Positions 9,871-47,591 are shown, counted from the first letter of the stretch. The stretch: DNA of 52,462 nucleotides from an uncultured Bacilli bacterium (GCA_944363665.1 CALVUS010000001.1:1-52462), one strand, 5' to 3'. A program made the numbers and translations. Notes: generated by a model from the letters alone, not told the origin.

Positions 9871-9928
9871 TGTATTCCTCCTTAAGCATTAAATATTCTA
9901 TCATATTTTAAAATTAAAATACATAAAT

Positions 9929-9957
9929 AATTTACACCAAACTATAGTTTGTGTCAA
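9929..9957 (-). promoter_or_regulatory. uvrA promoter TTGACA-N17-TAAATT with a LexA-box-like palindrome CAAAC-TATA-GTTTG (9938-9951) filling the spacer
   Basis: Read on the minus strand: -35 = rc of 9952-9957, -10 = rc of 9929-9934; perfect 14-bp palindrome with the 5-4-5 geometry of the Firmicute Cheo box CGAAC-N4-GTTCG. Confidence 0.55.
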
Positions 9958-10015
9958 TAAAATTATTTTTTTGACAAATTTATCGTAAAATAGTTATGTA
10001 GCACAAAATATCAGT

Positions 10016-10044: not shown

Positions 10045-10092
10045 ATAGGCGATTTAAAAGATATATTTTTGCTATGTAAAGGGGGTACTAAT

Positions 10093-11613
10093 ATGTACGA
10101 AGATGGAAGCAAAAAAATAAATTTCAATTGGGGGTCACTTGCTATTAAATTAGCAATATTAGCAGTAATTATATTTATTATTTGTTTTATAATTACCAAA
10201 TTAACTGGAAACAAATCCAATAGTACTTCAACTTTAGCTATTAGTAATAACGATTACATTACTAATATTACATCAATGAAAGATGCAGCTTTTGAATACT
10301 TTACACCTTCCAAGTTACCAGAAAATATTGGTGGAACTGAACGACTAACATTGTCTGAAATGCTAAATCAAAAATTACTAATTGATTTTACAAATGATGG
10401 GGATACTTGTGATATTGACTCTAGTTATATTCAAGCTACCAAAACCGCTGATGGCAATTATGCACTGAAAATTAGTCTTGATTGTGGTGATAAATCAGAT
10501 TTCATTATAACCACTATTGAAGAACAATCCTGTGTAATTGATGGAAATTGCAATGAAACTACAAATACTGATGTTGTAATAAATGATGATGAAAAAACAA
10601 ATGATACCAATACTAACAATAATGACAACAACAATAGTAATAGTAGTAATAACAGCAATACAAATAGTGGCAGTAGCTCAACAACTACTACTGGCAGTTC
10701 TTCAAATACAAGTAATAAAGTAACTACTACAGTAAAAACTACTGTTAATATTAAAATAAGCTGCTCAATAAATGGTTGCACAACTAGTAAGCCAAGTGAG
10801 CCAAGTAAACCTAGTGAACCAACCGAACCTGAAGATCCGACACCTGATACACCAGAAGATCCTGATAAAGATGATACAACAAATGATGAAAAAACTAAAT
10901 ATTATAAATTAGTTAAATGGTCTGATTGGGAAGAAGGATATTCATCAAAAAGTAATACAGAAAATAAAAAAGAAACTGTGACAACTTATGATTATTGTGA
11001 ATATACTGATAAAACCTATTACACTACTAGTTGGGTAAGTGCATCAAAAAGTTCCCAAAATTACAATTATGAAATCGAGTTACAAAATATAGATGCTAGA
11101 GATATAGTTGATAATGAAATTTCGATAACGGATAAATCTTATTTTTCAAGTTCAACTACAGATTATAAAAAATATATGGATCAAACTAATGCTCTACATA
11201 TGACTGGTAATGTAAGTTCTCATAATATTAATATTTCTAGTGCATCTGCATTTAGAAATTCATCATTAACTGAAAACAATTTCAACTATGCAATAAGTAG
11301 TTTATATAAAGATGGTAATAGTTATAAAACATTAATAACAATTAATTATCGAAATAGTAATGGTGTAAGTCGTTATTATGCAAATAATATTGGCAGTTAT
11401 ATATACTTTGTACCACTTAAATTTACTGTAACATACGTTGATGAAGACGATTGTACTAGAGATACCTATGAAAATAGAAATGATTATAAAGGATATTATA
11501 GAACAAATAAAGATACTGAAAGCATTTGGTATCACAGAACAGCTACATATAAATGGAGCACAAATAAAAATCTAAGTGGTTGGGATTATACTGGAGAATA
11601 CGAATACAGATAA
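10093..11613 (+). CDS. Membrane-anchored surface protein with Asn/Ser/Thr low-complexity region and PSEPSKPSEPTEP linker
   Basis: ORF track starts at TTG 10069, but ATG 10093 sits 7 nt after a strong RBS. One TM helix, a Cys-containing domain, an N/S/T-rich stretch (DNA 10600-10720), a Pro/Glu/Asp linker, then a Tyr/Asn-rich C-terminal domain of unknown family. Confidence 0.7.
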   Translation: MYEDGSKKINFNWGSLAIKLAILAVIIFIICFIITKLTGNKSNSTSTLAISNNDYITNITSMKDAAFEYFTPSKLPENIGGTERLTLSEMLNQKLLIDFTNDGDTCDIDSSYIQATKTADGNYALKISLDCGDKSDFIITTIEEQSCVIDGNCNETTNTDVVINDDEKTNDTNTNNNDNNNSNSSNNSNTNSGSSSTTTTGSSSNTSNKVTTTVKTTVNIKISCSINGCTTSKPSEPSKPSEPTEPEDPTPDTPEDPDKDDTTNDEKTKYYKLVKWSDWEEGYSSKSNTENKKETVTTYDYCEYTDKTYYTTSWVSASKSSQNYNYEIELQNIDARDIVDNEISITDKSYFSSSTTDYKKYMDQTNALHMTGNVSSHNINISSASAFRNSSLTENNFNYAISSLYKDGNSYKTLITINYRNSNGVSRYYANNIGSYIYFVPLKFTVTYVDEDDCTRDTYENRNDYKGYYRTNKDTESIWYHRTATYKWSTNKNLSGWDYTGEYEYR

Positions 11614-11710: not shown

Positions 11711-11751
11711 TAAAACAAAAAAGTAGTTCATATAAAAGATATGAACTACTT
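11711..11751 (-). terminator. Rho-independent terminator closing the Tad-like operon
   Basis: 12-bp stem AAGTAGTTCATA / TATGAACTACTT (11721-11732, 11740-11751) followed on the minus strand by TTTTGTTTTA. Confidence 0.75.
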
Positions 11752-11768
11752 TACTATTTAAATTTTAT

Positions 11769-12122
11769 TTAGTCTCCAAAATTTTCGTTATAAGCATCTG
11801 TGCAAACGTCACCACCAGGACTAGAAATACATCTAGCACAAACTTCGTATTTATCACTTGTTGAAGTATCAACTAAACGAATAACAAATGATACAATTGT
11901 CGGTACAAAGAATATTGCTACAGCAGCAATACAACGCATTAATAATGATTTTGCTGCTTTAGATACTTCTTTATTATCACTCGAAATTACAGCCTTTCCT
12001 AAGTCTACCATTCCCAAAATAATCAAAATTATAGGAATTACAATTTTAAATACTAATAAAAAATATCCAACTGTTCGCCATATATTAGCAGTATCTGCGC
12101 AAAAAGTATCAACATTCCCCAT
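11769..12122 (-). CDS. VirB2/TrbC-like two-TM hairpin protein (pilin-like), paralog A
   Basis: 117 aa; two TM helices joined by a GKAVISSDNKEVSKAAKSL loop; Cys-containing C-terminal tail; clear paralog of 12179-12532 and of 49753-50205. Confidence 0.55.
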   Translation of the reverse strand: MGNVDTFCADTANIWRTVGYFLLVFKIVIPIILIILGMVDLGKAVISSDNKEVSKAAKSLLMRCIAAVAIFFVPTIVSFVIRLVDTSTSDKYEVCARCISSPGGDVCTDAYNENFGD

Positions 12123-12178
12123 AATTCTAACACTCCTCTCTTTTTCTAACTATATTTTACTCTATTACTCGTTTAAAG

Positions 12179-12532
12179 TCAATCTTTATTGGTAAAAATG
12201 CCTTCATTGTGACTAGTATCACATTTATCATTTGGTGAAGTAAGGCAATCAACACAATTTAAATAATCATCTTGTACTTCAGAAAAGCCACCTATAAAAT
12301 TAAAAAACACATTTATTATTGTGGGAATAAAGAAAATAACTATAGCAATTATAAATTTCTTTAATAATGATGATGCAGTTTTTGACATAGCTTTAGCATC
12401 ACTGTCCATTATAGCTTTAAAAAAATCTATCATTCCTAAAATTATCAAAACTAATGGCACTATAATTTTAATAATCATAATTGCATAACCTACAATTTGC
12501 CAAACCTTTGCTGTTTTGTAACAAAATTCCAT
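12179..12532 (-). CDS. VirB2/TrbC-like two-TM hairpin protein (pilin-like), paralog B
   Basis: 117 aa; same architecture (FKAIMDSDAKAMSKTASSL loop, FFIPTI second helix, CVDC...C tail). Confidence 0.55.
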   Translation of the reverse strand: MEFCYKTAKVWQIVGYAIMIIKIIVPLVLIILGMIDFFKAIMDSDAKAMSKTASSLLKKFIIAIVIFFIPTIINVFFNFIGGFSEVQDDYLNCVDCLTSPNDKCDTSHNEGIFTNKD

Positions 12533-12546
12533 ATTTTACACCCCCA

Positions 12547-13533
12547 TTATTTAAAAATACTAAATATTCCTGAGCCATTAGGATCTATTCTACTAAACCC
12601 TAAGGCAGATAAAAATGCATTAATAATTGGTTGATTATCCAATTTGTCATCCAAATACGGTAAATTGTAAAATACTTTACTTCCACTTTCTTTTTCAAAT
12701 TCCGATACATCTTTTTCCGATAATATACTCCGATTTAATACAATTTTTTTGCCTTTAAGTTCTTCAAAAATCATGTTATCTTTTCTAATTAATTTATTTA
12801 ATTGAATACGTCCAGGTTCTATTAGATAAATAATATCGTTACAATAATTAGTAACATCGCTATTATTTAAATCTACTAGTATAACATCACAATTAGAATT
12901 GCTAGCAATATAATCACTAAAATTCATACTGGAAATGCTATCTAAACTGGAATCATTAAAATATTCAAAATCATTTGCATCTATTTCTACTGCTTTTACT
13001 TTATACACTTTGTCCAAATGAATTTTCATCAAATATGTTAAAGTTGTTGCTCCAGCATGATCCGTAACATTTTTGATACCAATAACTTTTTGAGATATTT
13101 TACCTCTTGTTGTATCAACCGCATTTTCATTTAAAGCTGGTCTTTTGTAGCCATTAATATTATGAAAATTTGCTACATCTTTATAAGAATTTGGGTTATC
13201 TATCAAATATCTTATAACATTAATATCATTTGTAAAATTATATATCCCCATCGATATTAATTGTGAAATATACATTGGTGAATTTACAACCTCAGAATCA
13301 TCTAATAACAATATTACTTTGGACATATCAAAATTAACTGACAAATTTTGCATGGTTTTTATATCTTGATAATTTTTAATAGCAGTTATATCAATAATCA
13401 TTTTATTAAAATAGAAATTAGAAAACTGAGCTATTAATTCATCAACCGAAAACTCTCCATTTATACTTTTAATAATATCAATATCTAAACTAGCCAGTAA
13501 AGCTTGATATTTATTAGAAATTATTACATTCAT
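12547..13533 (-). CDS. tadZ: TadZ/CpaE-like protein: receiver-like N-domain plus ParA/MinD-like domain with degenerate Walker A
   Basis: 328 aa; position in the locus; P-loop-like VIGIKNVTDHAGATTLTY lacks the canonical GK[ST] lysine; a later hhhhD (VILVDLN) resembles a Walker B. Confidence 0.55.
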   Translation of the reverse strand: MNVIISNKYQALLASLDIDIIKSINGEFSVDELIAQFSNFYFNKMIIDITAIKNYQDIKTMQNLSVNFDMSKVILLLDDSEVVNSPMYISQLISMGIYNFTNDINVIRYLIDNPNSYKDVANFHNINGYKRPALNENAVDTTRGKISQKVIGIKNVTDHAGATTLTYLMKIHLDKVYKVKAVEIDANDFEYFNDSSLDSISSMNFSDYIASNSNCDVILVDLNNSDVTNYCNDIIYLIEPGRIQLNKLIRKDNMIFEELKGKKIVLNRSILSEKDVSEFEKESGSKVFYNLPYLDDKLDNQPIINAFLSALGFSRIDPNGSGIFSIFK

Positions 13534-14009
13534 ATTATTCCTCCGATCAAATTATTGCTGCCAACAAAGGAATTAGTTCTTCCATTTACATTAAATGTTG
13601 CTATATCTCCCAAAAAAGGTAAATTAAATCTATAAAATACAATTATATCGTAATAAATATAGTCACGTGAATCACTAGGTTGACTAACTTGAGAAAAACA
13701 ATAATAATATCTTGTTGCTCCATCAGCTTCTTCATAATTGCCTTCTAAGTCTATTGCTCCGTACCATTTTACGTTATCATCTTGAGGACAATTTCCCGTA
13801 GTAGTATAACTTTGACCTACTAAATAATTATTAATTATATCACTAGATTGGGAAGTTAAACCCTCATATTTTTCAATAATAGATAGCATTTCATTTTTTA
13901 CACGATAAGCTTTAGAATAGTTTAAAACAAGGGTTAAAAAACATGCAAAAATTAAAATGAATAAAATCATTATTTGAAAAACCCAAGTAGAACCTGATAC
14001 TTCTCGCAT
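13530..14009 (-). CDS. Pseudopilin-like (TadE/TadG-position) membrane-anchored protein, paralog 1
   Basis: 159 aa; short polar N-terminus (MREVSGS) then a hydrophobic helix; paralogous to 14024-14524 (shared ...VKNE(M/I)L(S/N)IIE... and ...YTTTGNCP/YRTTGTCP blocks). Confidence 0.45.
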   Translation of the reverse strand: MREVSGSTWVFQIMILFILIFACFLTLVLNYSKAYRVKNEMLSIIEKYEGLTSQSSDIINNYLVGQSYTTTGNCPQDDNVKWYGAIDLEGNYEEADGATRYYYCFSQVSQPSDSRDYIYYDIIVFYRFNLPFLGDIATFNVNGRTNSFVGSNNLIGGII

Positions 14010-14023
14010 AATCTTATCTCCTT

Positions 14024-14524
14024 TTAATTTTTATATATTATTCTAGTTTCACCTTTTGTTTGAAAATTATATAGTTGTTTAATAACTGGAATATCTAATT
14101 GATAAAACACCACTATTTGAACATAAGATCCATCAACAAAATCATCAGTAGCTACTGTTCCAGCACCTAGTTCTCCTTCCAGGTAACCATCTAATTCTGA
14201 AGTAACATTAACTTTTCTTATACAAACAGATGCTTCTTGGCCAGATGTCACTGGAGATCCATTACGTTGATATCCTTGATATTCATCAGGGCAGGTTCCC
14301 GTAGTTCGATAAGATGTTTCATTGATTGTATCAATTATATCTTCACTTAAATTGCCATTATCTCCTTCATATACTCCATTATTAGCTTCAATTATATTTA
14401 AAATTTCGTTTTTTACACCAAAAGCATTTGAATTATTAATTGTTAAGCACATAATTGCTGTAAATAGCAATACAAATAATATAAATATTTGAAAAATAGT
14501 TGTAATACTTATTGATTCCTTCAT
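14024..14524 (-). CDS. Pseudopilin-like membrane-anchored protein, paralog 2
   Basis: 166 aa; same architecture as 13530-14009. Confidence 0.45.
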   Translation of the reverse strand: MKESISITTIFQIFILFVLLFTAIMCLTINNSNAFGVKNEILNIIEANNGVYEGDNGNLSEDIIDTINETSYRTTGTCPDEYQGYQRNGSPVTSGQEASVCIRKVNVTSELDGYLEGELGAGTVATDDFVDGSYVQIVVFYQLDIPVIKQLYNFQTKGETRIIYKN

Positions 14525-14533
14525 TAAAACTCA

Positions 14534-14812
14534 CTATCCTCTATAAAGACAATCAAAGCTATTATCACTAGATCTGTCTTCCTCTTCATCATCCCAACAT
14601 GTGCAATACATTATTCCTTCTACTTCATGCAAACCAGGTAATCCTCTAATAGATTCTTCACTACAGTTGCAAACTGCCTTATTACATTGTGCAGTACTTG
14701 TAAAGTTAAAATCTAGCATTGGCCACAAAACACCGAAAAAAAAGGCCATCAAGACCCCAATTGATATCATAACAATTACTGCTAGATTTATTTCTCCTGT
14801 AGCCTCTTTCAT
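14534..14812 (-). CDS. Pilin-like protein with Cys-rich C-terminal extension
   Basis: 92 aa; MKEATGE leader-like N-terminus followed by a 22-25 residue hydrophobic helix; six Cys in the C-terminal half. Confidence 0.55.
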   Translation of the reverse strand: MKEATGEINLAVIVMISIGVLMAFFFGVLWPMLDFNFTSTAQCNKAVCNCSEESIRGLPGLHEVEGIMYCTCWDDEEEDRSSDNSFDCLYRG

Positions 14813-14829
14813 AATTCTTTACCAACTAT

Positions 14830-15087
14830 CTATTCAGAATCATCAGCTGCATCATCATATTGAATTGGATCACCTTCAGCACAGTAACATATCTTTTGAT
14901 CAGTATCAACTCCGCCAGATCCTTGTGTTGAATCTAATTTTCCACCAGGACACATATTAGAACATGTACTTCTTGCCAAACTAGTTTGAATACCAGGCCA
15001 AACTACAGCATAGAAGAATGCTCCTACAGCAACTATCGCAACGACAGTAACAACAGTCATATTTAATTCACCAGTCGCTTCTTTCAT
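14830..15087 (-). CDS. Pilin-like protein (probable major subunit) with Cys-containing acidic C-terminus
   Basis: 85 aa; identical MKEATGE N-terminus; hydrophobic helix; four Cys; strong RBS AAAGGAGGAA; its own promoter immediately upstream. Confidence 0.55.
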   Translation of the reverse strand: MKEATGELNMTVVTVVAIVAVGAFFYAVVWPGIQTSLARSTCSNMCPGGKLDSTQGSGGVDTDQKICYCAEGDPIQYDDAADDSE

Positions 15088-15119
15088 ATTAAATAAATTC
15101 CTCCTTTTACCATATTTTT

Positions 15120-15148
15120 ATTATAACTTATTTTTAAGTAAATATCAA
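15120..15148 (-). promoter_or_regulatory. Internal promoter TTGATA-N17-TATAAT in front of the pilin-like genes
   Basis: Minus strand: -35 = rc of 15143-15148, 17-nt spacer, consensus -10 = rc of 15120-15125, within the 84-nt gap between the tadC-like gene and the first pilin-like gene. Confidence 0.55.
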
Positions 15149-15171
15149 TTTTTTTTATTATGTAATGTCAA

Positions 15172-15960
15172 CTAAACATTCATCATTTGAACAACTGCAA
15201 GGATTAGCAAAACCATCAGTCCAGCTCCTGTAGCAATTAACATGCTCATAGTTTTGCCTTCCATCTTCTCCAAGCGATTTTTATAACGTGTCTCTCTAGC
15301 TTTTTGTTGCAAACTAGATATAGATCTTGAAAACATTAAAATTTGTTCTTGTTTACGTTCTTGACGACCTAAACTTAAACGATATAAAAGTCGCATCATT
15401 CTCATTGAATCACGAACAGGATATTTACGAGCAAATTCCATATAAGGTTCAATTGTATCATCACCAGCATTTATAGCATCAATCATTTCTTGTAACCCAT
15501 CTTTAAATATTTCCGGAGCATCTGCCATTGATTTACCAATTGCAACTGGAACAGTATAATGTTGAATAAGAATTTCTAAATTCTTTAAATAATGCGGTAA
15601 CATAGCATCTATTTGATGCATATGACGTGTATAGAATTTTTTAATATCACTATAAGGTTGCTTAAATATAAATATTCCCACAACAGCAATAATTAGTAAC
15701 TTTACAGCATTTAAGTCTTGAATCATGTATAAAAATAATAACACCATAACAATCAATGCATTTTTAATTCTTTTATTAAATAATACATCAGGATTCATAG
15801 CTGTACCATATTTAGCTCGAACATAAAAATCCCAATCACTTTCTTTAAGCCTTAAAAATAGCATTTGATTATCGCTAATCATTTGATTAATATTAATTTG
15901 TCCTGAAACTGTCATAATAAGAAAAACAATTACCGCTATAATAATAATTTCTACTTGCAT
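15172..15960 (-). CDS. tadC: TadC-like platform protein (T2SS-F/GspF-like fold)
   Basis: 262 aa; TM helices at the N-terminus, around residues 70-100 and at the C-terminus, flanking a cytoplasmic domain of about 130 aa; directly follows the tadB-like gene with a 1-nt overlap. Confidence 0.55.
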   Translation of the reverse strand: MQVEIIIIAVIVFLIMTVSGQININQMISDNQMLFLRLKESDWDFYVRAKYGTAMNPDVLFNKRIKNALIVMVLLFLYMIQDLNAVKLLIIAVVGIFIFKQPYSDIKKFYTRHMHQIDAMLPHYLKNLEILIQHYTVPVAIGKSMADAPEIFKDGLQEMIDAINAGDDTIEPYMEFARKYPVRDSMRMMRLLYRLSLGRQERKQEQILMFSRSISSLQQKARETRYKNRLEKMEGKTMSMLIATGAGLMVLLILAVVQMMNV

Positions 15961-16865
15961 TATTCCACCCCTACATCTTCATTATAATACTTTTCTCCAG
16001 AAAGAAGGAAAAAAGAATTGATAAGAACAACTGCATGTAGTATTAACTGAACGTACCAAATTTCGATAAGTTCAATATAGTTTTCTTCACCTAACATATA
16101 TCGTAAAACAACAACTAATAAATATAATGTTAAACCAAATTTGATAAAACGGCCATGAAAATTTTTACGATCCATTTGGTCACGATAAACACCTTCAACA
16201 AGAGCATCGATATCCATTGACATATTTTCTAAAGCTTGTCCTGAATCACGAGCACCTTCTTTAGTTATTTGTAAAAATAATTGATGCATATTTTTGACCA
16301 TATAATATGGGTACTTATTATTAAAATATTGAATAGATTCATCTATCGTTCCATTTTGATAAGACATTTCAATCATTTTTTTGACATCTTCTAAAACTGG
16401 ATTTTCTAAAATACCCGAATCTCTTACTCCTTCTAAAGCTTTTACAAAACTTTGAGTAGTATTAAATTCCATTATAACATTGGTTGTATAGGTTTGAATT
16501 TGTTCAAATAAAAATTCACTATAAATTCTTTGGCAACGTAAATATGCTAAATATGGAATAAAAGAAATAGCAACAATTGCATATATAGCAGCTATAATGA
16601 TACTGTAAAAATAAAAGTATCCTATTAAAACTGCAAAACCACCAAATAATAATACTTGTGTTATATATTGCCTAGTGGTATATTCTTGACCTAATTCAAT
16701 AGCTTTTTCGCGAACCATTTTGAATGAATAAGGAGCATATTTATCATATATTTTGGTTGCATTTCCCGCTACAAACTTATAAACGTTTTCACCAGGATTA
16801 CGACGATAAATTAAAACAAAAGCCGCTATAAGCAATAATATTACTAATTCTAAAAGTGTTCCCAT
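15960..16865 (-). CDS. tadB: TadB-like platform protein (T2SS-F/GspF-like fold)
   Basis: 301 aa; same TM/cytoplasmic-domain/TM layout; immediately downstream of the secretion ATPase. Confidence 0.55.
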   Translation of the reverse strand: MGTLLELVILLLIAAFVLIYRRNPGENVYKFVAGNATKIYDKYAPYSFKMVREKAIELGQEYTTRQYITQVLLFGGFAVLIGYFYFYSIIIAAIYAIVAISFIPYLAYLRCQRIYSEFLFEQIQTYTTNVIMEFNTTQSFVKALEGVRDSGILENPVLEDVKKMIEMSYQNGTIDESIQYFNNKYPYYMVKNMHQLFLQITKEGARDSGQALENMSMDIDALVEGVYRDQMDRKNFHGRFIKFGLTLYLLVVVLRYMLGEENYIELIEIWYVQLILHAVVLINSFFLLSGEKYYNEDVGVE

Positions 16866-16878
16866 ATTTACTCCTTTC

Positions 16879-17994
16879 TTATAAACTTTCTATTCCCATA
16901 ACCTCTGTATTATTGGCAATACTATTTTCTTCTTTAACAAAGTAATTAGGATCCATATCTACTCCTTGAACACCTAAATAAGCAATTAAATACTTACTAG
17001 GATTATTAAAAGAAAATTTGCCATCTAAGCTTTTTTTAAATAAAATATTTGATTTTGCTTCATTATTATCATCAACATAAAATTCTACTACTTCTATTAT
17101 TTCTCTTTGGAATCTTCCTAATTCTTTACTCATATAGCCTTTAACATGAATACCAATCTGAACATAACGATGAATAGATTTTAAAAATTGATCTATATCT
17201 TGACTACTTTCTAACAAACTATACATCCGCATTGGAATATTTAAAGCTCTATCTGAGTGAATAGTAGAAATAATATTATGCCCAGAGGAAATAGAGTTAC
17301 GAACAGCAGTAACTGCCTCTGCAGAACGAACTTCTGATAACAATATCCATCTTGGATTTTGCCGCATACAAGTAACTAAAACATCAGAATATGAAGCAAT
17401 ATTATTAGTTTTCATAGCAACTATATCACGATGGGGAAAAATTTTATCCAAATGTAATTCTAGTGTATCTTCAATGGTAATTATTTTTTCATTTTCTTTA
17501 GTATGACTGGCTAAATATTTAACTAGTTCTGTTTTCCCACTCCCAGTTTCACCACTAACAATTATATTGCAGTGTCCTTCTACACAAGTCATTAAAAAAT
17601 CATGAAGATTTTCAGTAACATATTGTTCATTTAACAACTTTTCTTTATTTAGACGGATTTTGGCAGGCGTCTTTCTTATTAAGCAAGCAATTCCATTTGT
17701 AGCAATTGAATCATGAACAAAATTAAGACGTAATTCTGCAGATTCGGCATCCAAAAAAGGATGAGCCATATTAAAAGTTTTACCCATAACATTTGAACAT
17801 TGAAAAGCTAATTTTTCCATTAATGCATTATTTATTTCTGGTCTTTCAACACGATAAACACCCTTATTAAGAGTTTTTAGCCAAACTTGACCACCATTAG
17901 AATATGAAACGTCAGTTATATTATCTTCTTCTAAAAACTCTTTTAAAGGTCCAAAATCTATTTGTGAAAATATTGCATCATTCACACTTGTCAC
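16879..17994 (-). CDS. tadA: CpaF/TadA-family secretion ATPase (VirB11/GspE superfamily)
   Basis: 371 aa; Walker A SGETGSGKTE, ITIEDTLEL Asp box, MRQNPRWILLSEVR Walker B region, STIHS His box. The true start may be the second in-frame GTG (17985), 6 nt after GAGGTG. Confidence 0.85.
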   Translation of the reverse strand: MTSVNDAIFSQIDFGPLKEFLEEDNITDVSYSNGGQVWLKTLNKGVYRVERPEINNALMEKLAFQCSNVMGKTFNMAHPFLDAESAELRLNFVHDSIATNGIACLIRKTPAKIRLNKEKLLNEQYVTENLHDFLMTCVEGHCNIIVSGETGSGKTELVKYLASHTKENEKIITIEDTLELHLDKIFPHRDIVAMKTNNIASYSDVLVTCMRQNPRWILLSEVRSAEAVTAVRNSISSGHNIISTIHSDRALNIPMRMYSLLESSQDIDQFLKSIHRYVQIGIHVKGYMSKELGRFQREIIEVVEFYVDDNNEAKSNILFKKSLDGKFSFNNPSKYLIAYLGVQGVDMDPNYFVKEENSIANNTEVMGIESL

Positions 17995-18000
17995 CTCTTT

Positions 18001-18765
18001 TTAATTATTAATATCTAATACCATACTATCAATTAATTGATTTAATGCTAAATTAGAGTAAGCAGTTTCAGCACCTTCAATTGTATATAATTTATTCCTT
18101 GGAACTGGATATAAATCCCAATTTAAATATTCAATCCAACTTAGATACTCAAACATTTCGGTTGGTACTGCAAAAGATAACCATGCAGGTGTTCTTACTT
18201 CATTGCCGTCAAATACATTTTGACCATTAGAATCTTTTACAGAAACCACATCTATACTAGTAATAAATTCATCATAAACAATTTGACCGTCAAGACTTGC
18301 TCTTAACCATAAATCTATTTTATCTCCTGGATATATTGAATTTGCATAAGTACTAGTATTATCAACCTTTAACCAATATAAAGTATACCCATTTGGTAAG
18401 TCTTCTTGTTCTCTTTCTTTTAAATCTTCTCGATCTACTACTTGACTAGTATAAAACATAGCACCTTCCTTAATCGATGTTTCATTCTTGACATATCTAC
18501 CAACTAATTGCGATGTAGAAGTAATAACACTAGCATTTTTTAAAAATTCACTATTTACTTCTACAAATTCAAAATCTTCTGAAGTAATTTCCTCTGTAGC
18601 TGTTATATCTCGAGTAGCAACTGGTACTCGTTGTGGATTTACAGCATTACTTACTGTCATATTATAGAAAAACCATAGCACTATTACTCCTGCTAGAACT
18701 GCTAAAATTGTCACTGTATTACGATTTAATAAAAATTTTCGCAAATTATTAATAATATTTCCCAT
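18001..18765 (-). CDS. cpaB: CpaB/RcpC-like Flp pilus assembly protein (SAF domain), paralog 1
   Basis: 254 aa; N-terminal TM helix, then RVPVATRDITATEEITSEDFEFVEV... typical of the CpaB SAF domain. Confidence 0.7.
   Translation of the reverse strand: MGNIINNLRKFLLNRNTVTILAVLAGVIVLWFFYNMTVSNAVNPQRVPVATRDITATEEITSEDFEFVEVNSEFLKNASVITSTSQLVGRYVKNETSIKEGAMFYTSQVVDREDLKEREQEDLPNGYTLYWLKVDNTSTYANSIYPGDKIDLWLRASLDGQIVYDEFITSIDVVSVKDSNGQNVFDGNEVRTPAWLSFAVPTEMFEYLSWIEYLNWDLYPVPRNKLYTIEGAETAYSNLALNQLIDSMVLDINN
18307..18354. repeat. 48-nt tract identical to 19095-19142 inside the two cpaB paralogs
   Basis: ccataaatctattttatctcctggatatattgaatttgcataagtact occurs in both genes (encodes STYANSIYPGDKIDLW), while the flanking DNA is diverged. 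Confidence 0.9.
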
Positions 18766-18767
18766 TT

Positions 18768-19553
18768 TTATCCTCCGTTTGAGTAATCAGCACCCATATC
18801 CATAGTTTTATCTTTAATTATCTGTAAAAGTTGCTCATTAGATATTTCCGTTGCCCCACTTTCAGTATTATACAATTTATTTCTTGGGACTGGAGTTATA
18901 CTAATGTCTGATATAAATTCTGCAATTTTTAAATAACGGTACATATCAGTAGGAACCGCAAATAACAACCAAGCAGGTGTTCTTCCACTTGTTACATCAA
19001 ATACATTTTGGCCAGAAGAATCTCTTACTGCCAATACTTCAATTCCCGAAATAAATTCACTAAAAACTAGTAAACCGTTTTGTCTAGTTTGCATCCATAA
19101 ATCTATTTTATCTCCTGGATATATTGAATTTGCATAAGTACTTACATTATTAACTTGCAATTGATAAATAGTATATCCATCTGGAATTTCATCAAATATC
19201 GAATTTGGCAACTCTTCCTTTTCAACTACTTGAGTTGTATAAAACATACCACCTTCAGGAATGGATGTACCTGTACTAACATATTTACCAACTAAATCAT
19301 TGACATTTGTTATAACATCAGCATCACTTAAAAAACGATTGCTAATTTCTACCATTTCTATATCATCTTGAGTAATTTCCGAAGTTGCAGATAAATCTTT
19401 ATTTGCCACCGGAACTCGTCTTGGATTAACGGCATTGTTAACTCGATATGTATAAAAACCAAACAATACCGCTACTCCAACAACAAATCCTAAAATAGTT
19501 ACTGTTGTCTTATTGGTAAAAAATCTTTTAAAAGTTCCTATTAGACCTCCCAT
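18768..19553 (-). CDS. cpaB: CpaB/RcpC-like Flp pilus assembly protein (SAF domain), paralog 2
   Basis: 261 aa; RVPVANKDLSATSEITQDDIEMVEI...; collinear paralog of 18001-18765. Confidence 0.7.
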   Translation of the reverse strand: MGGLIGTFKRFFTNKTTVTILGFVVGVAVLFGFYTYRVNNAVNPRRVPVANKDLSATSEITQDDIEMVEISNRFLSDADVITNVNDLVGKYVSTGTSIPEGGMFYTTQVVEKEELPNSIFDEIPDGYTIYQLQVNNVSTYANSIYPGDKIDLWMQTRQNGLLVFSEFISGIEVLAVRDSSGQNVFDVTSGRTPAWLLFAVPTDMYRYLKIAEFISDISITPVPRNKLYNTESGATEISNEQLLQIIKDKTMDMGADYSNGG

Positions 19554-19571
19554 TTTATTCCTCCATTTTTA

Positions 19572-19979
19572 TTAAAGTGCATTACCTTCAATTATTGCAT
19601 CAATTCTTTCTACCATATCAAACGATTCTGGATCTCCAACAACATTAAAGGTATTTGATTTACTTTTAACCTCAACACTGACCTTTGGTGGCGCTTCATA
19701 AACCCCATAAAAACTTACAGTATATGTTGTAGATAAAGAAGCAGTTTCAGCAAATCTTCTCAAAAAGCTTTCATAAAATTTTTCTTTATTAATTTTAATT
19801 TCGCCATAACTTCGATAATAAGAATAATCTACCGCATCTACTAAAGCTGCTTCTGTTATTTCTTTTATCAAATAATAATCTTGAGTACTAGAAGTAGTTA
19901 AGTTTTGTACTAATAACATTATAACTACCACAAATATTCCGAGTAATATTAGCCAGTATCCCCAAAATGCATTTTTCAT
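19572..19979 (-). CDS. Hypothetical membrane-anchored protein of the Tad-like operon
   Basis: 135 aa; one N-terminal TM helix; no recognisable motif. Confidence 0.5.
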   Translation of the reverse strand: MKNAFWGYWLILLGIFVVVIMLLVQNLTTSSTQDYYLIKEITEAALVDAVDYSYYRSYGEIKINKEKFYESFLRRFAETASLSTTYTVSFYGVYEAPPKVSVEVKSKSNTFNVVGDPESFDMVERIDAIIEGNAL

Positions 19980-19992: not shown

Positions 19993-22900
19993 CTACTTCC
20001 ATGATGGACCACCAATAACTGTTAGAGCACCAGAATTTTCTTGTAAAGTTGGCATTTCCCATGTACTCCATAATGTCCAATATCCATCAGCATTAGCAGC
20101 ATCATTGTCATCAGATCTACTACCAACTGGAGTTCTATTATATACAGTAATATCATCACCATAATCAGCAATTAACTCATCAATTACTTCACTATAACAG
20201 TATATATCAGGAACTACTGTACCATCTTCCAAAGTAGCATCATAACATGTTAACGTATCATTAGCATAGCCACCAGAGCCTTCAGCAGAAGCATTAATGC
20301 TTTTCAATTCATTAATTAAATCAGATGTAAGTCTAACGCTAAATGCTAAAGATGAATCATCACCAGTTTTATCATAAATCATTTCATTTTCAGTTTCTAT
20401 TTCATCGATCGTAGCCTCAGCTTTATCAACTAAAAGTTGTAATGGAGCCATACTAGTAGTAATATTCCAATTTGTCCAATCTTCAGCAGTTGTCCAGTTA
20501 TATCCAGGTTGTCTATCTACAGAATTGACATCTGTTGATATGATTGGTTTTACATTAATGTCTAATTCATCTAAATTAAATATGCAGTTTACACAATCAA
20601 ACACACATTCTGGACAGTCAACCCATTCACAGCCATCTTCATCACATTCAAAATCACAATTTGGACATTCAGGGGAACGACAATCACTTTCATAATAACA
20701 TAAATAATTACCATCAAAAGTTTCTTCGTCAATACCTTTAGCATATGCAACACTTTCGTCATTTATTTCGATTTCAGTAGTTCCATCTGGATTAACGTCT
20801 AATCTTACAACATCTATTAATCTACCTAATTCACCATCATCATAAAATTCACCAAGGTCTTCAATTAATAATTGATATATTCCTCCACCAACAACACTAG
20901 TAGATACTGGCAATACATTTTCTAAAGCTTCCAATTGCAATTTATCGCCAGCATAATCATTTACAATCGTTATTTTGCCATTAGCAGCTATTTGATAAAA
21001 CACAGTTGGAGTTTCATAGCTTTGAGCTTTTTTAACAGTTTTTCTAATAAATCTTGCTTGAGAAATATCTCTAGAATCGGTTTCACAGCCATCACCAGCA
21101 AAACAAACAACATAATCACGATTTTCATAAGCACCAGATACATTAGATGCATAATTCCATTCATCTATATCTTGAATATCTTGAGTAATATTTCCAGCTT
21201 CTGTTGGATCGTCACTATCTGTTTCACCAGTCATATCAAATACATCACTAGCGCCTTCACAAACATATTTATCATCCGCAGTTTCATAACAAACTTCAAT
21301 TTCACTTTCATATTCAAATTCATCTTCAATAGGAATTAAATAATCAGCATCAGTTATAGATGATTGTTTTAACAAATCATAATATGTTGTGAACATTGGT
21401 TCATCTTCACCACGGAATTCATTATAGAAATATTTAATTTTTTGATTAAATTGATATACATTTTCCCACATTCCAGTACATGCATTTAAATCTGTAATCA
21501 ATTTTTGATAATCTTCATAAGCTTCCTCTAAATCTTCTTCTGCTTGATCACGTTTTTCTTGCCAATCTTCTAACCAGTCATCATATTTCTCATTCGCTGA
21601 TTCATCTATTCCGCCGCAACAATGCTTTGTACATCCTCCTTCAGGTGATACATCACAGCAATAATGATTATGACTATCCGTAAATGATGTTCCTGAATCA
21701 TCTATATTTTCTGAAGAAAAATATCCATTTTCATTAACAAATGAAAATTCATAACTTAAATAATCATCCCACTCAATTTCTATAGTGTCTCGTTTAGTAC
21801 CGTAACCGCATTCCCCTTCTATTGTATTTTCAATCCAACTTTCTACTCTAGCATTTGCAGCATTCCATCTATTCATGGCATCTACCATTCTACTTTGAGC
21901 ACTTTCAATTTCATCAAGATATTTTTCTATATCTATTCCCATATCATCTACTGTACCTGCTGTATAACAATCTTTTTTACCTTCAACTCGTGCTGTTAAT
22001 TTGAAATTTGTACCACAGTTTACATCAGAAATAATTGGATCTAATGTAATTCCGCCTAAAGCTTCTTCATTATCTGTCCAACTAATATAATCTTCTTTAC
22101 AGTAAACTGAACAAAATTCATTGTCTGAATTTACACCACCATTTTCTTCAGAAAGTAAATAACTATTTTGAGCTTCATCAGTATTATTTAATATACATTT
22201 TTTGATTTCTTCTGAAGTATAAACATTGGCAACAGCATCTTCTTCATCATCACTACAAACCGGAACTTCTATAACAGTTTCACAAATTTCGCTTTGTTCT
22301 GCACATGTAATTCTGCCACTAACTTCACCAGTTTGAGCTCCACCTTCTTCATCAGCTTTAGCTACCACGAAAAATCTTTGAGTATTTGTTGTACTAGGTC
22401 TTAATAAAGCACCGTAATATTCAACACTTGTATCATGATAATCATAGCTTAAAGTAAAATCTGCTGCTGTACATTCTTCAATAGTCAAATCTTTAGAAAC
22501 TAAAATACGAATTCTAATTATTCCACTTCTTTTATCTTGAGTACCAGTCAAAGATCCAGTTGGCAAAGCCTTAGAAATATCTGTACTAGCATCCAATGTA
22601 GCCCAGTCAGTAGTTTCGGTAGAATATTCAATGGATTCAATTGTAATTCCATTAGCATTACATTGTGGACAATCCAATTGAACATTATTTATATATCCAT
22701 CTTCAGCAGCAATATTGTTGACTTCCATATTGATATAAACATATTCAGTTGCTGTAGTTTCATTTTGTTCTACAGATTCTGTATCGCCAACTCTCGCATC
22801 AATAGAAAAAGCTAAATTTTTGTTTCTATAATAATCTGATGCTGCTTCAACTCCTAATCTAAACAATTTTTGAGCAGCATAGATAACGTTATAAGAAGTA

Positions 22901-23577
22901 CTTCCTTCTGCTCCATAAATCATAACAATATTAGGATCATACCAGCTACCATACTTTCCAGCGATATATCTTTGGATGCATGCTTGATCATTTGTCGTAC
23001 AGCTATTTAATCCAGGAACTATTTCTGTAGCTCCCATGCCACTATAAATTGTTGCCCAATGAACACCTAGATTTATTAAAGATGATCCTTTTGCTCGATA
23101 TGCGGCAGATAATGTTGCATTACCACCCCAACCATAAAGTCCCATTGTAAATGCCCGTTGAGCTATACTTGTAGCTAAATAAAGGTCATTGCCACTAACA
23201 ACAGTTCCGTTATCTAAAGTTAAACTAGAATTAAATTGATTATATCCATTTGCTAAAATAGCTAATATCCCATGATCATATGAATTTACTTCATCATGTT
23301 GGCTATCTGCTCCTAAAATACGATCTATTGTATATGAGCCTCCACCTTGAAGATGTGGATCTTCACAGTATGTTACATAATCTTTACCATTTACACTACT
23401 ATGATATTTTATTTCACCATTATAAGTATAATTCCCATATCTAAGACCATCAGCTGTTACAGTCCCATCTTTTACAATAGAAAAGCTAGCACCTTCACTA
23501 AAATCAATAGCTTTAACTTCATTAAAGCCTACAATAAACATTAAACCTAATATTAATAATTTTACACTTTTTTTCAT
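19993..23577 (-). CDS. Large secreted Cys-rich acidic protein, putative adhesin with an N-terminal thioester-(TQXA)-like domain
   Basis: 1194 aa; signal peptide ...NEVKA/IDF; YCEDP (Cys71), ANGY, then LYLATSIAQRAF (Gln140), resembling the YC..P / GY / ATQxA(I/V)W pattern of Cys-Gln thioester domains; 10 Cys in 39 residues at DNA 20584-20700; no LPXTG motif or C-terminal TM helix. Confidence 0.6.
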   Translation of the reverse strand: MKKSVKLLILGLMFIVGFNEVKAIDFSEGASFSIVKDGTVTADGLRYGNYTYNGEIKYHSSVNGKDYVTYCEDPHLQGGGSYTIDRILGADSQHDEVNSYDHGILAILANGYNQFNSSLTLDNGTVVSGNDLYLATSIAQRAFTMGLYGWGGNATLSAAYRAKGSSLINLGVHWATIYSGMGATEIVPGLNSCTTNDQACIQRYIAGKYGSWYDPNIVMIYGAEGSTSYNVIYAAQKLFRLGVEAASDYYRNKNLAFSIDARVGDTESVEQNETTATEYVYINMEVNNIAAEDGYINNVQLDCPQCNANGITIESIEYSTETTDWATLDASTDISKALPTGSLTGTQDKRSGIIRIRILVSKDLTIEECTAADFTLSYDYHDTSVEYYGALLRPSTTNTQRFFVVAKADEEGGAQTGEVSGRITCAEQSEICETVIEVPVCSDDEEDAVANVYTSEEIKKCILNNTDEAQNSYLLSEENGGVNSDNEFCSVYCKEDYISWTDNEEALGGITLDPIISDVNCGTNFKLTARVEGKKDCYTAGTVDDMGIDIEKYLDEIESAQSRMVDAMNRWNAANARVESWIENTIEGECGYGTKRDTIEIEWDDYLSYEFSFVNENGYFSSENIDDSGTSFTDSHNHYCCDVSPEGGCTKHCCGGIDESANEKYDDWLEDWQEKRDQAEEDLEEAYEDYQKLITDLNACTGMWENVYQFNQKIKYFYNEFRGEDEPMFTTYYDLLKQSSITDADYLIPIEDEFEYESEIEVCYETADDKYVCEGASDVFDMTGETDSDDPTEAGNITQDIQDIDEWNYASNVSGAYENRDYVVCFAGDGCETDSRDISQARFIRKTVKKAQSYETPTVFYQIAANGKITIVNDYAGDKLQLEALENVLPVSTSVVGGGIYQLLIEDLGEFYDDGELGRLIDVVRLDVNPDGTTEIEINDESVAYAKGIDEETFDGNYLCYYESDCRSPECPNCDFECDEDGCEWVDCPECVFDCVNCIFNLDELDINVKPIISTDVNSVDRQPGYNWTTAEDWTNWNITTSMAPLQLLVDKAEATIDEIETENEMIYDKTGDDSSLAFSVRLTSDLINELKSINASAEGSGGYANDTLTCYDATLEDGTVVPDIYCYSEVIDELIADYGDDITVYNRTPVGSRSDDNDAANADGYWTLWSTWEMPTLQENSGALTVIGGPSWK

Positions 23578-24338
23578 ATTTCACTACTCCTACGTCTTTT
23601 TATAATTACAACCACTACTATCCCCACTATTACAACTAAACTAATTCCTCCTACTATAAAAGGAACTTTATGTTCAGATATAAATTTTCCTATAGACTCC
23701 AACCAAGATAAATCTTCTTCATCATTAGCATCACCGTTTTGGATTCTATCTACCTCAGCAGTAACATTATCAATAAAATCTGCAAAATCTATATCACCAA
23801 ATGTAACATATTCTTGACATAAATAATAATCAGATGCCACTTCACACATACCATAAGTTGAATAACTATTATATCTTGGCAATGTCAAAGTCATTGTCCT
23901 TATAGTGTCATCTTGACATCCATTATTGCCAGTTGATTTGACAGTTATTGTCAATCTTGCAACTTCGGACACGTCATTCCATTCAATAGCCAATGTGCCA
24001 TTATTAGTATCTGAAAAATTATATCTTGTTACATCGCTAGATTTATCACTACTTACTTCGATATAAAGATTTTCAGTTAAATTTAAAATGTTAATTTGCA
24101 AATAATCTGTCTTTGGAACCCAAGTTTCTTCTTCTTCGGTTCCTAAAATAGAATCTGGAGGCCCATATAAATTAGGATCTAATTCTTTTTCTTTAATTTC
24201 ATAATTTGCTCTTATCTCACTAGCTTCATTATTTAAAGTTGCCCTTTGGGTATAATCACAAGTACCAACCGCCTTTGCTGTACCAATAAACATTCCAAAA
24301 ACAGCTAGTGATAAAAATATATATTTCAATCTATACAT
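23574..24338 (-). CDS. Secreted, C-terminally tail-anchored protein (first gene of the operon)
   Basis: 254 aa; signal peptide ...GTAKA/VG; C-terminal TM helix plus KRRRSSEI; ATGA overlap with the 1194-aa gene. Confidence 0.55.
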   Translation of the reverse strand: MYRLKYIFLSLAVFGMFIGTAKAVGTCDYTQRATLNNEASEIRANYEIKEKELDPNLYGPPDSILGTEEEETWVPKTDYLQINILNLTENLYIEVSSDKSSDVTRYNFSDTNNGTLAIEWNDVSEVARLTITVKSTGNNGCQDDTIRTMTLTLPRYNSYSTYGMCEVASDYYLCQEYVTFGDIDFADFIDNVTAEVDRIQNGDANDEEDLSWLESIGKFISEHKVPFIVGGISLVVIVGIVVVVIIKRRRSSEI

Positions 24339-42427: not shown

Positions 42428-42484
42428 TGGATTACTTCCTTTCTTAACAAATATTATACAACATTTTCTTAATTATGAAAATTG

Positions 42485-43306
42485 CTAATTTCCATCAAAT
42501 GTTAGACTATAAGTATTATCAGTATATTCATATATTAAATATGTTGTTTCACCAGCATTACTAAAATAACCTTTTTGTATAAATATACTATCATATTGAG
42601 AATCTAATAAATTTATAAAATAACCTATCCTATATGTTGGAGACACTAATATATTTGCTGAATTTACAAGCTCTTTTTCTAATACTATTATTTCTCCGTT
42701 TAAATTTACATATAATAAATTAAAATATACAGATTGATCTATCTCACTAAATATATTTGATAGAGATATTACTTTATCCATTATTCCGTTACTATCTAAA
42801 TCAAGCATTACTTTTTGATTTGTTGACAATGACATCATATCAATGTTATTTTCTAAAATTGTGGAAGCTTCTTGTAAATCAATAGAATCTACAACAGAAA
42901 TATTATTATTTCTAACATTCATTTTTAATCCACTTGTTCCTGCAACTAAATCTCCATCATAATCTATATAATTATTATTTTCATCAAATATATTCCAATT
43001 TACTCCTTTTTTTAAATAATAATTTCCAAAAAATGTTTTATTTACATAAATATCAAATAAGACTTCATCAAATTCTTCATTACTAGCTAGTGACCATATT
43101 CCACCATTATTTTTTAATTGAATTATATTGTTTATTTCCAAATAATCATATGTAATTTCCACTGGATCATTATCAATATCAATATTCGACCCGTTATTAT
43201 CGGGATTATCATTTGGTTCTTCTTTAACCATAAATATAATGCCAACTATTAAAGCATATCCCAATAATAATATTAAAATTAATATACAAGCTGCCTTTTT
43301 ATTCAT
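42485..43306 (-). CDS. Membrane-anchored T4SS-associated protein in the PrgL/VirB8-like position
   Basis: 273 aa; N-terminal TM helix; call based on position between the hydrolase and coupling protein genes; no motif evidence. Confidence 0.35.
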   Translation of the reverse strand: MNKKAACILILILLLGYALIVGIIFMVKEEPNDNPDNNGSNIDIDNDPVEITYDYLEINNIIQLKNNGGIWSLASNEEFDEVLFDIYVNKTFFGNYYLKKGVNWNIFDENNNYIDYDGDLVAGTSGLKMNVRNNNISVVDSIDLQEASTILENNIDMMSLSTNQKVMLDLDSNGIMDKVISLSNIFSEIDQSVYFNLLYVNLNGEIIVLEKELVNSANILVSPTYRIGYFINLLDSQYDSIFIQKGYFSNAGETTYLIYEYTDNTYSLTFDGN

Positions 43307-44912: not shown

Positions 44913-44926
44913 TTAAACCACCTTAA

Positions 44927-46711: not shown

Positions 46712-47278
46712 TTACATCACCGCCCCAAAGTTTGTTTGTTCGCCACCATTTAAGAAATTATCCAAAATAACTCTTAAATCGTTATTAGAAGCTTGTGTTG
46801 ATTGCAAACCAGCACTAGCAAGACCACTGATTAAATTATGAATTTTTTTCTGAACAAGCTCTAATCTTTTTTCTTTAAATAATATATAGTATTCAGTATC
46901 AACAACATTGTATTCAACACTTGTAAATAAATTTGCTTTATTTATATCTTGCATAATTAATTTTTTAATTGCATTATTTTGAGAATTATTATACATAAGC
47001 TGCAATTGTGATACATAAACATCAATATCAACAGGACGATCTGCAATAAGTAACCAAAACTCAAAATCAATACTATTATAAAAATTTCTTAAATTATAAA
47101 TAACATTATTTTGAGTTCCAGCATCTAAAATGAATATATTTCTTGGTGTTATTTTAACACCAGTAACATAAGATCCATCTTGTAATTGAATCATTCCATT
47201 TATTATTTGTCTTATAGGAAGCCAATCCTCTGTATAATTTTTACTATTATCAACTGCACTATTCAACTTCTGAGTCAT
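46712..47278 (-). CDS. virB4: VirB4 N-terminal domain encoded as a separate ORF
   Basis: 188 aa; DWLPIRQIINGMIQLQDGSYVTGVKITPRNIFILD resembles the N-termini of PrgJ/TcpF-type VirB4 proteins; same frame as and contiguous with 44927-46711. Confidence 0.6.
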   Translation of the reverse strand: MTQKLNSAVDNSKNYTEDWLPIRQIINGMIQLQDGSYVTGVKITPRNIFILDAGTQNNVIYNLRNFYNSIDFEFWLLIADRPVDIDVYVSQLQLMYNNSQNNAIKKLIMQDINKANLFTSVEYNVVDTEYYILFKEKRLELVQKKIHNLISGLASAGLQSTQASNNDLRVILDNFLNGGEQTNFGAVM

Positions 47279-47573
47279 ATTTCACACACCAACCTCTCCA
47301 ATAATATTTTCTAGGACTAAGTATAAACGTTATTACATTTATGATAAATTGTAAAACATTATGGTAATACATAACAGGTGTTACTAAGAAACCAGTTATT
47401 AATGCAGGAAGCAAAATGAGAACCATTTCTACTGCCGATGCCTGATTAACAAGTATTAATAATAGCAATGTAATACCACAACCAGAACCAAATAATATTA
47501 AATCGACTGGTGTAAAAAATCCTAGTATTAATTGCGATTTTTTAGAATTTGCAGGTATTATATAATTATTCAT
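47259..47573 (-). CDS. PrgI/TcpE-family (VirB3-like) small membrane protein
   Basis: 104 aa; two TM helices, C-terminal RKYYWRGW; sits immediately upstream of and overlapping virB4, as in Gram-positive T4SSs. Confidence 0.65.
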   Translation of the reverse strand: MNNYIIPANSKKSQLILGFFTPVDLILFGSGCGITLLLLILVNQASAVEMVLILLPALITGFLVTPVMYYHNVLQFIINVITFILSPRKYYWRGWCVKYDSEVE

Positions 47574-47591
47574 TCCTTTTTATCCTTTCTT

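Follow-up and report, generated by a model that had tools for sequence, protein, structure and literature searches.

A divergent thioester-domain-like adhesin candidate in a Tad/VirB11-type operon of uncultured gut Bacilli

Thioester domains (TEDs) bond bacteria covalently to their targets and are the basis of protein-ligation tools. Can a large secreted protein that carries no sortase anchor be such an adhesin, and which of its residues would then form the bond? The question was raised by a gene on the minus strand (positions 19,993 to 23,577) of a 52,462-nucleotide stretch of DNA from an uncultured Bacilli bacterium (GCA_944363665.1, CALVUS010000001.1:1-52462), referred to here as the window. 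An initial annotation made from the sequence alone had proposed a TED-like N-terminus for its 1194-amino-acid (aa) product, with a thioester between Cys71 and Gln140. From homologue comparison and structure prediction, we consider it probable that the protein is a Sec-exported adhesin whose aa 24–424 form a very divergent Class II TED with a Cys71–Gln400 thioester, and whose body docks to co-encoded machinery.

The gene product and its N-terminal domain

The ORF list and the translation both showed the open reading frame (ORF) to be real, with a product of 1194 aa. Its Sec signal peptide was read with the cleavage junction between MKKSVKLLILGLMFIVGFNEVKA and the following I, and an equivalent n-h-c region was present in all homologues. 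The motifs named in the initial annotation, VTYCEDP (Cys71), ILANGYNQF and DLYLATSIAQRAFT (Gln140), were all recovered from the translation, as was its observation that the protein has neither an LPXTG motif nor a transmembrane (TM) anchor: within the 1194 aa, neither an LPXTG-like motif nor a hydrophobic stretch of at least 17 residues occurs. No Cna or isopeptide Pfam domain was matched in it either, and the C-terminus is GGPSWK, so that the features of a sortase-anchored TIE/MSCRAMM-type protein are missing. Pfam and NCBIfam scans of the full protein returned noise only (ALIX, SigW), and phmmer against the Protein Data Bank (PDB) gave no match.

A word-indexed search yielded 15 full-length homologues, with a precomputed Pfam domain on 0/15. 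By exhaustive profile search the family comprised 482 cluster representatives at 50% clustering, nearly all of ~1000–1400 aa; second and third homologue searches with alignments A1 and A3 gave no useful extra sequences.

Structure modelling and profile comparison support the N-terminus as a TED homologue, very divergent, at the level of fold and family. The AlphaFold2 (AF2) model of aa 24–440 had a pLDDT of 85 and a pTM of 0.70, and its secondary structure was all-β over aa 263–424. When this model was searched against the PDB with Foldseek, the sole matches at E<1e-3 were 6fwy_C (E = 4.5e-8) and 6fwy_A (E = 8.2e-8), with a probability of 1.0 and an alignment of 418 columns; the next match had an E-value of 2.4e-3. 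6FWY is the Class II TED of E. faecium TIE86 (EfmTIE86), which shares with the Class II TEDs BaTIE (6FWV) and SaTIE a common fold of an α/β lobe with an inserted β-sandwich (PMC6194298). The AF2 model and the Foldseek match place the same lobe and insert in the window protein, with the caveat that the TM-scores were low (0.32 and 0.42, with an rmsd of 10 Å); the match is therefore read as a shared core inside a larger domain.

Relatives of the window protein led to the same family. Among 53 family N-terminal domains scanned singly, 14 matched Pfam TED (PF08341; best E = 9.4e-6) and one matched TED_2 (PF20610), and no other family appeared in more than two members. In the copy from locus L004, which is 40% identical to the window protein, the PF08341 match began at the Cys motif and reached 24.9 bits, the curated cutoff being 22. 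None of the 10 divergent members that had been picked for a detailed Pfam scan was among the TED-matching ones. We also aligned 54 family sequences by hhalign with a reference set of 11 Class II TEDs of the type carried by plasmid pLS20, collected from plasmid records. The E-values were 7.6e-6 (local) and 7.9e-8 (global), with probabilities of 84–92%, whereas reversed or column-shuffled control templates gave 0.05–0.86. The confident core under default settings paired query 46–119 with TED 32–96 and covered the Cys motif and the helix that follows the TQXXΦW pattern of TEDs. The solved TEDs were not reached when the pLS20 TED was run against the PDB with phmmer. A profile of the N-terminal lobe against the PDB retrieved only designed helical repeat proteins, which we rejected as spurious (one Ala-rich helix).

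Against the assignment to the TED fold stand, besides the low TM-scores, the results with the window protein itself, which had no TED hidden Markov model (HMM) match at E≤1 and no TQXA HMM match; TIGR03934, the TQXA model, also matched 0/53 of the family N-terminal domains at E≤10. The initial annotation had proposed TIGR03934 and the Pfam TED models as its check and had named a lack of HMM hits, combined with predicted structures in which Cys71 and Gln140 lie far apart, as grounds for refutation. A lack of HMM hits is literally what we found for the window protein, but 14/53 relatives match PF08341. We read the missing hit as a false negative: so divergent a domain lies beyond the reach of the models. 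With the 6FWY match, the Pfam matches of relatives and the hhalign result relative to its controls, the proposal of a TED-like N-terminus is supported.

Candidate bond-forming residues

TEDs have three motifs, of which [YFL]CΦζ holds the bond-forming Cys (PMC6194298). The Gln that completes the bond belongs to a weak motif, ΦQζΦΦ, on β-strand Q; in Class II it comes ~170–205 residues downstream of the Cys, on a hairpin that the inserted β-sandwich contributes. The TQXXΦW helix has a Gln and a Trp that only hydrogen-bond the Cys backbone and are dispensable for bond formation (PMC6194298). The window protein resembles the Class II TEDs in having its Cys in [YFL]CΦζ and a Gln in ΦQζΦΦ near the end of the sandwich, and judged by conservation and alignment its reactive pair is most likely Cys71–Gln400.

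Cys71 was invariant in 54/54 and 59/59 homologues and, across 53 diverse homologues, was the sole invariant residue of the N-terminal lobe, in which A139, R141 and A235 were nearly invariant. The segment Y70-C71-E-D73 fits [YFL]CΦζ, and Cys71 aligns with Cys68 of TIEpLS20. This protein, the product of pLS20 gene 34, is a Class II TED adhesin required for conjugation in liquid, and Cys68 is essential, the C68S mutant being non-functional (PMC8092201). Gln400 (TNTQRFF) was kept in 53/54 homologues, and Q400-R-F-F fits ΦQζΦΦ; it is by homology that Gln400 is assigned as the candidate bond partner. When the hhalign alignment is extended or made global, Gln400 falls on Gln256 (SSYQRLM) of TIEpLS20, which has been modelled at bonding distance from Cys68 (PMC8092201). 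The C-terminal half of the domain alone gave the same Gln register with an E-value of 0.005, compared with 0.26–0.96 for shuffles. The mean pairwise identity of the domain was 22–23%, and Cys71 and Gln400 were among its few near-universal positions; at the sequence level, a near-universal Cys and Gln in a divergent domain is the pattern described for TEDs.

Both the window protein and TIEpLS20 begin with a signal peptide, after which comes a TED of Class II type, and four elements align between them: YC[I/M]DP, Y-D-x-G-x-x-A-I-L-x-x-G-[YF], a degenerate TQXXΦW helix and YQR[LM]. Their sequence identity is nevertheless below phmmer detection, and the upper lobe and sandwich are larger in the window protein, with a Cys–Gln spacing of 329 residues against 188 in TIEpLS20.

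In the initial annotation, whose reading amounts to a Class I-like TQXA domain, Cys71 was paired with Gln140, and the segment ATSIAQ was taken to carry a 2-residue insertion. The local motifs are indeed present in the right order and within a helix. However, position 140 was I/L/V in 47/61 homologues and Q in 2/61, position 137 was mostly S (Q in 4/61), and position 141 was R in 53/61. No insertion is needed, because T136-S-I-A-Q140-R141 aligns gap-free to T-Q-X-X-Φ-W and places Gln140 at Φ. The segment aligned at high posterior with KTYVALNNW and ATSLALDS of the pLS20-type TEDs, the ATSIAΦR helix pairing with TYVALN. In all TEDs it is another residue, carried by β-strand Q, that serves as the bond-forming Gln, and the bond can form without the Gln of TQXXΦW (PMC6194298); TIGR03934, moreover, matched none of the 53 members. 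A Cys71–Gln140 thioester is thus hardly credible, and neither this pairing nor the insertion was retained.

The invariance of Cys71 could also be that of a catalytic nucleophile, in a papain- or transglutaminase-like enzyme acting on cell wall or target surface polymers. In favour of this, a conserved acid comes after the Cys (D73 in 50/61), and Arg141 hardly varies. The lobe, however, in which only Cys71 is invariant, showed neither a conserved His nor a second catalytic residue, no peptidase or transglutaminase family appeared in the Pfam or Foldseek results, and all positive evidence favours a TED. We regard such an enzyme as very improbable. The peptidase reading of Cys71 was dropped for want of a conserved His.

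A further alternative is a relic of the TED fold that has no thioester. The protein would then bind non-covalently, Gln400 would be structural, and Cys71 would be free or in a disulfide, either intermolecular (e.g. to Cys-rich pilins) or to Cys369 or Cys425. The loss of the TQXXΦW Gln and Trp, the missing TED HMM match of the window protein and the unusual Cys–Gln spacing all fit this alternative, as does the Cys richness of every exported protein of the operon, which would make thiol/disulfide chemistry a theme of the system. The Cys count was odd in 54/59 mature homologues (range 29–77, after crude signal-peptide removal), a parity that fits one Cys outside disulfide pairs and is supportive of the thioester rather than a probability, and that equally fits a free or intermolecularly bonded Cys.

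Several of these points tell directly against a Cys71–Gln400 thioester. The parity argument is affected by shared ancestry and by the crude trimming of signal peptides. The TQXXΦW motif is not intact, its Gln and Trp being replaced by Ser and Arg (T-S-x-A-Φ-R), and the spacing of 329 residues exceeds the ~170–205 of solved Class II TEDs. The default hhalign core (query 46–119) stops short of Gln400, and the match of the Gln-bearing half was weak (probability 7%). One homologue, from locus L054, has Glu in the Gln400 column of alignment A4 with the Cys retained; nature may have produced a variant without a thioester here, or the Glu may stem from a slip in the alignment or an error in sequencing. 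The L054 homologue (9863–9961 region) comes from a metagenome-assembled genome (MAG) that bears the label Muribaculaceae, which is probably an artefact of binning or labelling.

On the other side, exactly the two residues that align with the bond pair are jointly near-invariant in a domain otherwise ~23% identical, and the Gln stands in a canonical ΦQζΦΦ context close to the YQRLM of pLS20. The pLS20-type TEDs likewise do not have the Gln of TQXXΦW, and yet the C68S mutant is non-functional. We therefore hold the thioester-less relic to be unlikely, though the most probable of the alternatives, and keep Cys71–Gln400 as the candidate pair.

Cysteine-rich body, operon and relation to pLS20

The remaining ~770 aa (aa 425–1194) had no detectable relative. 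The AF2 model of aa 424–1194 was poor (pLDDT 47), and Foldseek found nothing below E = 1.6 for it. Profiles of aa 425–580 and aa 835–1194 gave nothing significant against the PDB, and per-member Pfam scans of the same two regions gave no significant family. Weak matches to aa 835–1194 (window 19996–21075) are leads, not findings: PF20953, the C-terminal insertion domain of a phage tail baseplate attachment protein, in 12/59 members (best E = 0.012), and the best sub-threshold PDB profile matches, a zinc-finger protein (E = 0.14, at the Cys cluster) and ComGC (E = 0.17).

The body is better conserved than the head. Against a mean pairwise identity of 22–23% in the TED, aa 425–580 reached 43%, aa 1001–1194 reached 42% and the Cys cluster 49%. 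The segment aa 425–580 carries the motifs C..C..P.CS, IKKCILNN.D.AGNSY, C.V[FY]CKEDY and CYT; at the most distant loci, no other part of the protein was still matched. Such a gradient would be expected of a protein whose N-terminal TED encounters diverse targets while its C-terminal part is docked to machinery that is itself conserved. As stated in the initial annotation, the Cys cluster packs 10 Cys into 39 residues; of the four CxxC pairs claimed for it we counted three (at C971, C988 and C995), which take up six of the ten. C960, C971, C974, C988, C991, C995 and C998 were kept in 59–61/61 homologues. The cluster may form disulfides or bind metal; the pairwise gain and loss of Cys across homologues suggests paired residues. 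The motif GP[SA]WK lay within 8 residues of the C-terminus in 61/61 homologues and at the very C-terminus in 59/61, the other two extending past it by 2–3 residues (VG or VGK).

Table 1 Features of the adhesin candidate and its operon in the window
Feature	Position	Strand	Basis
Upstream gene, 254-aa protein: signal peptide, ectodomain, C-terminal TM anchor	23574..24338	minus	Translation, ATGA overlap
Secreted-protein gene (TED-like head, Cys-rich body of unknown fold)	19993..23577	minus	ORF list and translation, 1194 aa
Sec signal peptide, aa 1–23, MKKSVKLLILGLMFIVGFNEVKA	23509..23577	minus	Direct reading of the sequence
Upper (α/β) lobe of TED-like domain, aa 24–262	22792..23508	minus	AF2, Foldseek, Pfam TED matches of relatives, hhalign
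Cys71 codon, [YF]C[LIM]DP motif, predicted thioester Cys	23365..23367	minus	Conservation and alignment with TIEpLS20 Cys68
T136-S-I-A-Q-R141, degenerate TQXXΦW counterpart with Gln140 at Φ	23155..23172	minus	Column counts and alignment
β-sandwich insert and terminal β-hairpin of Class II-like TED, aa 263–424	22306..22791	minus	AF2, Foldseek
Gln400 codon, xQRFF (ΦQζΦΦ) motif, predicted thioester Gln	22378..22380	minus	Conservation and hhalign
Most conserved family core, aa 425–580, fold without known relative	21838..22305	minus	Pairwise identity
Cys cluster, aa 960–998	20584..20700	minus	10 Cys counted
C-terminal motif GGPSWK-COOH (family GP[SA]WK)	19996..20013	minus	Homologue comparison
Rest of operon	11769..19979	minus	Pfam, synteny in 63 loci, independent gene calls
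Terminator-like hairpin after the last operon gene	11720..11752	minus	14-bp stem then T run; consensus match only

The adhesin gene stands second in a compact operon of 15 genes on the minus strand, which runs from 24338 to 11769. A genome scan gave 63 species-level loci, and the gene order was kept in essentially all of them as well as in independent gene calls. The first gene, for the 254-aa protein, overlaps the start of the adhesin gene by ATGA, with AGGAG 9 nt upstream of that start, and lies immediately upstream in nearly all 63 loci. The initial annotation had recognised this coupling but had placed the neighbour downstream and called its product tail-anchored; on the minus strand it is upstream, and its product, with a signal peptide and a C-terminal TM helix, is therefore a type I membrane protein. 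No Pfam family was found for it. The accompanying suggestion, that surface retention depends on this partner or on a filament, is plausible as a dependence on the operon machinery given the strict synteny, with the partner upstream instead of downstream. The adhesin gene is followed by genes for a DUF5411 protein, two SAF/RcpC (CpaB-like) proteins, a T2SSE-family ATPase of the TadA/VirB11 type and two polytopic membrane proteins, and then for two small pilin-like proteins, two TadE-like proteins, a 328-aa protein and two VirB2-like small membrane proteins.

The exported small proteins of the operon are all Cys-rich (14534–15087, 11769–12532 and 23574–24338, all minus). The pilin-like ORFs of 85 aa and 92 aa start with MKEATGE(L/I)N, continue with a hydrophobic helix and have 4–7 Cys in their short C-terminal parts, and conserved-looking Cys are present in the VirB2-like 117-aa pair and in the 254-aa upstream protein. 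Such Cys richness is unusual for secreted Bacillota proteins and hints at disulfide cross-linking across the system.

The order TED protein, DUF5411 protein, ATPase, two membrane proteins and small TM proteins is that of pLS20 genes 34–41. The window DUF5411 protein matched pLS20 gene 36 with an E-value of 1e-5 and the ATPase matched gene 37 with 1.5e-46; gene 37 is listed as 'putative VirB11'/tadA, and genes 36 and 38–41 are listed as unknown. The two membrane proteins of the shared module have ~250–300 aa, those of pLS20 ~250 aa. In the pLS20 sequence NC_015148 (6444–12971), genes 34–40 include a 126-aa DUF5411-like protein and a 120-aa TM protein. This correspondence of sequence and order suggests that pLS20 contains a Tad-like filament module; in the literature on pLS20, Gram-positive elements are stated to make no conjugative pili. 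As in pLS20, VirB4 and VirD4 genes occur in the same genome region of the window.

The differences are also clear. TIEpLS20 has 778 aa, a predicted Cna-type stalk and is plasmid-borne, whereas the window protein has 1194 aa, with a 770-aa Cys-rich body and a GP[SA]WK end, and its gene, unlike that of TIEpLS20, is chromosomal, near uvrA in several species and clade-wide. Two CpaB/RcpC-like proteins are encoded in the window operon and none in pLS20. TIE proteins of the EfmTIE86 type have CnaB isopeptide domains and LPXTG, whereas the window protein has neither, and the TQXXΦW Gln and Trp of Class II TEDs are Ser and Arg in it.

The CpaF/TadA ATPase, the SAF/RcpC proteins, the membrane proteins in the position of TadB/TadC and the small pilin-like proteins are shared with Tad/Flp (type IVc) systems, from which the VirB2-like small proteins set the window operon apart. 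Against Pfam, the operon matched neither TadB/C nor Flp, TadV, TadZ or peptidase A24, and TadE/G was weak (E = 0.09); for the two membrane proteins and the pilin-like ORFs there was no Pfam match of any kind. DUF5411 had earlier been noted only in predicted operons of gut Clostridia resembling those for pili or type II secretion systems (PMC9523054). Among the ten papers ranked highest in a single literature search on the point, none used 'thioester domain' together with the Tad terms.

Nearly all of the 63 loci came from uncultured gut MAGs. Their labels were Bacilli, Tenericutes, Mollicutes, Erysipelotrichaceae, Clostridium sp. CAG:609 and Candidatus Onthocola (Bacilli incertae sedis in NCBI), with three records of Muribaculaceae, and one homologue originated from Hadza human-gut metagenomes. 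Three species have two tandem paralogues of the large protein each (L031, 2053–10366; L042, 6315–14134; L053, 2053–9349), some with a copy of the 254-aa gene between them, which suggests duplication and diversification of the adhesin. The window is chromosomal DNA with a GC content of ~28%; it carries uvrA, genes for several tRNA synthetases and one for a PBP5-type carboxypeptidase. That uvrA follows the operon both here and in six further species argues for vertical inheritance. The D-Ala-D-Ala carboxypeptidase gene (Peptidase_S11 and PBP5 C-terminal domains; 26–1189, minus) indicates that the lineage, although labelled 'Tenericutes', probably has peptidoglycan, which bears on the retention of a non-sortase adhesin.

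Two further regions of the window were recorded. Just past the end of the operon, on the opposite strand, a 514-aa ORF (10069–11613, plus) without a Pfam family has an N-terminal TM helix, a long low-complexity linker rich in Asn, Ser, Thr and Pro and a Tyr-rich C-terminal domain; a homologue occupies the equivalent position in many loci. A cluster resembling a type IV secretion system (T4SS; 40250–50220, minus) lies between leuS and metabolic genes. It includes genes for a VirD4/TraG coupling protein (40250–42427) and a VirB4-like ATPase (44927–46711), both 16–23 kb upstream, for unassigned proteins of 716 aa and 537 aa, and for a 155-aa protein (49753–50220) paralogous to the VirB2-like 117-aa pair of the operon. 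The TED/Tad-like operon and this cluster between them reproduce the conjugation operon of pLS20, here divided over two sites in the chromosome.

Proposed mechanism and significance

In SfbI-type TEDs, attack of a target amine on the thioester is established as the route to covalent adhesion, and the same has been proposed for TIEpLS20. By homology, the window protein would act in a similar way. After Sec export, directed by the signal peptide read in its sequence, the TED is predicted to fold into an α/β upper lobe with an inserted β-sandwich and a β-hairpin returning to the lobe, whereupon Cys71 and Gln400 would form the internal thioester by themselves. A nucleophile of the target, typically a Lys amine, would then attack the thioester and leave a covalent isopeptide link, and the protein is thus probably able to bond covalently to a target. 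By analogy with pLS20 mating this target may be another bacterial cell, or it may be host material.

The fast-evolving TED would be the distal, target-specific head. The Cys-rich body (aa 425–1194), probably disulfide-bonded, and GP[SA]WK would stand in for the CnaB stalk and the LPXTG anchor, and may dock the adhesin to the 254-aa membrane-anchored protein, to the Tad/VirB11-type pilus apparatus or to both. Retention by the body and GP[SA]WK is proposed because of the synteny, the conservation gradient and the absence of a sortase signal.

This kind of adhesin is already known; what is new is the highly divergent TED variant and the Cys-rich body, and the operon context is informative. The family of ~480 clusters would extend TED sequence space to domains with Ser and Arg for the Gln and Trp of TQ..W and with a Cys–Gln spacing of 329 residues, which TED and TQXA models miss when run on the window protein. 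It would also be a case of a TED without a sortase anchor, fused to a Cys-rich module that has no known relative.

A wider reading, which we put forward as a doubtful one, concerns the whole clade of small-genome gut Bacilli ('Tenericutes', CAG:609 and Onthocola-type MAGs). Core genes on the chromosomes of these organisms, passed on vertically, might encode a mating apparatus like that of pLS20, comprising a Tad/VirB11-type filament module and VirB4/VirD4, with the protein described here as its covalent tip or surface adhesin, held by a Cys-rich, GP[SA]WK-terminated docking module and not by sortase. If so, the clade would have domesticated a conjugation-type machine for obligate cell–cell (or cell–host) attachment and exchange; a similar role has been proposed for the T4SS of Patescibacteria. 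A covalent adhesin linked to a Tad/VirB11-like filament operon would provide a concrete hypothesis for pLS20 genes 36–41, and may offer another for how abundant uncultured gut Bacilli attach to their partners or hosts.

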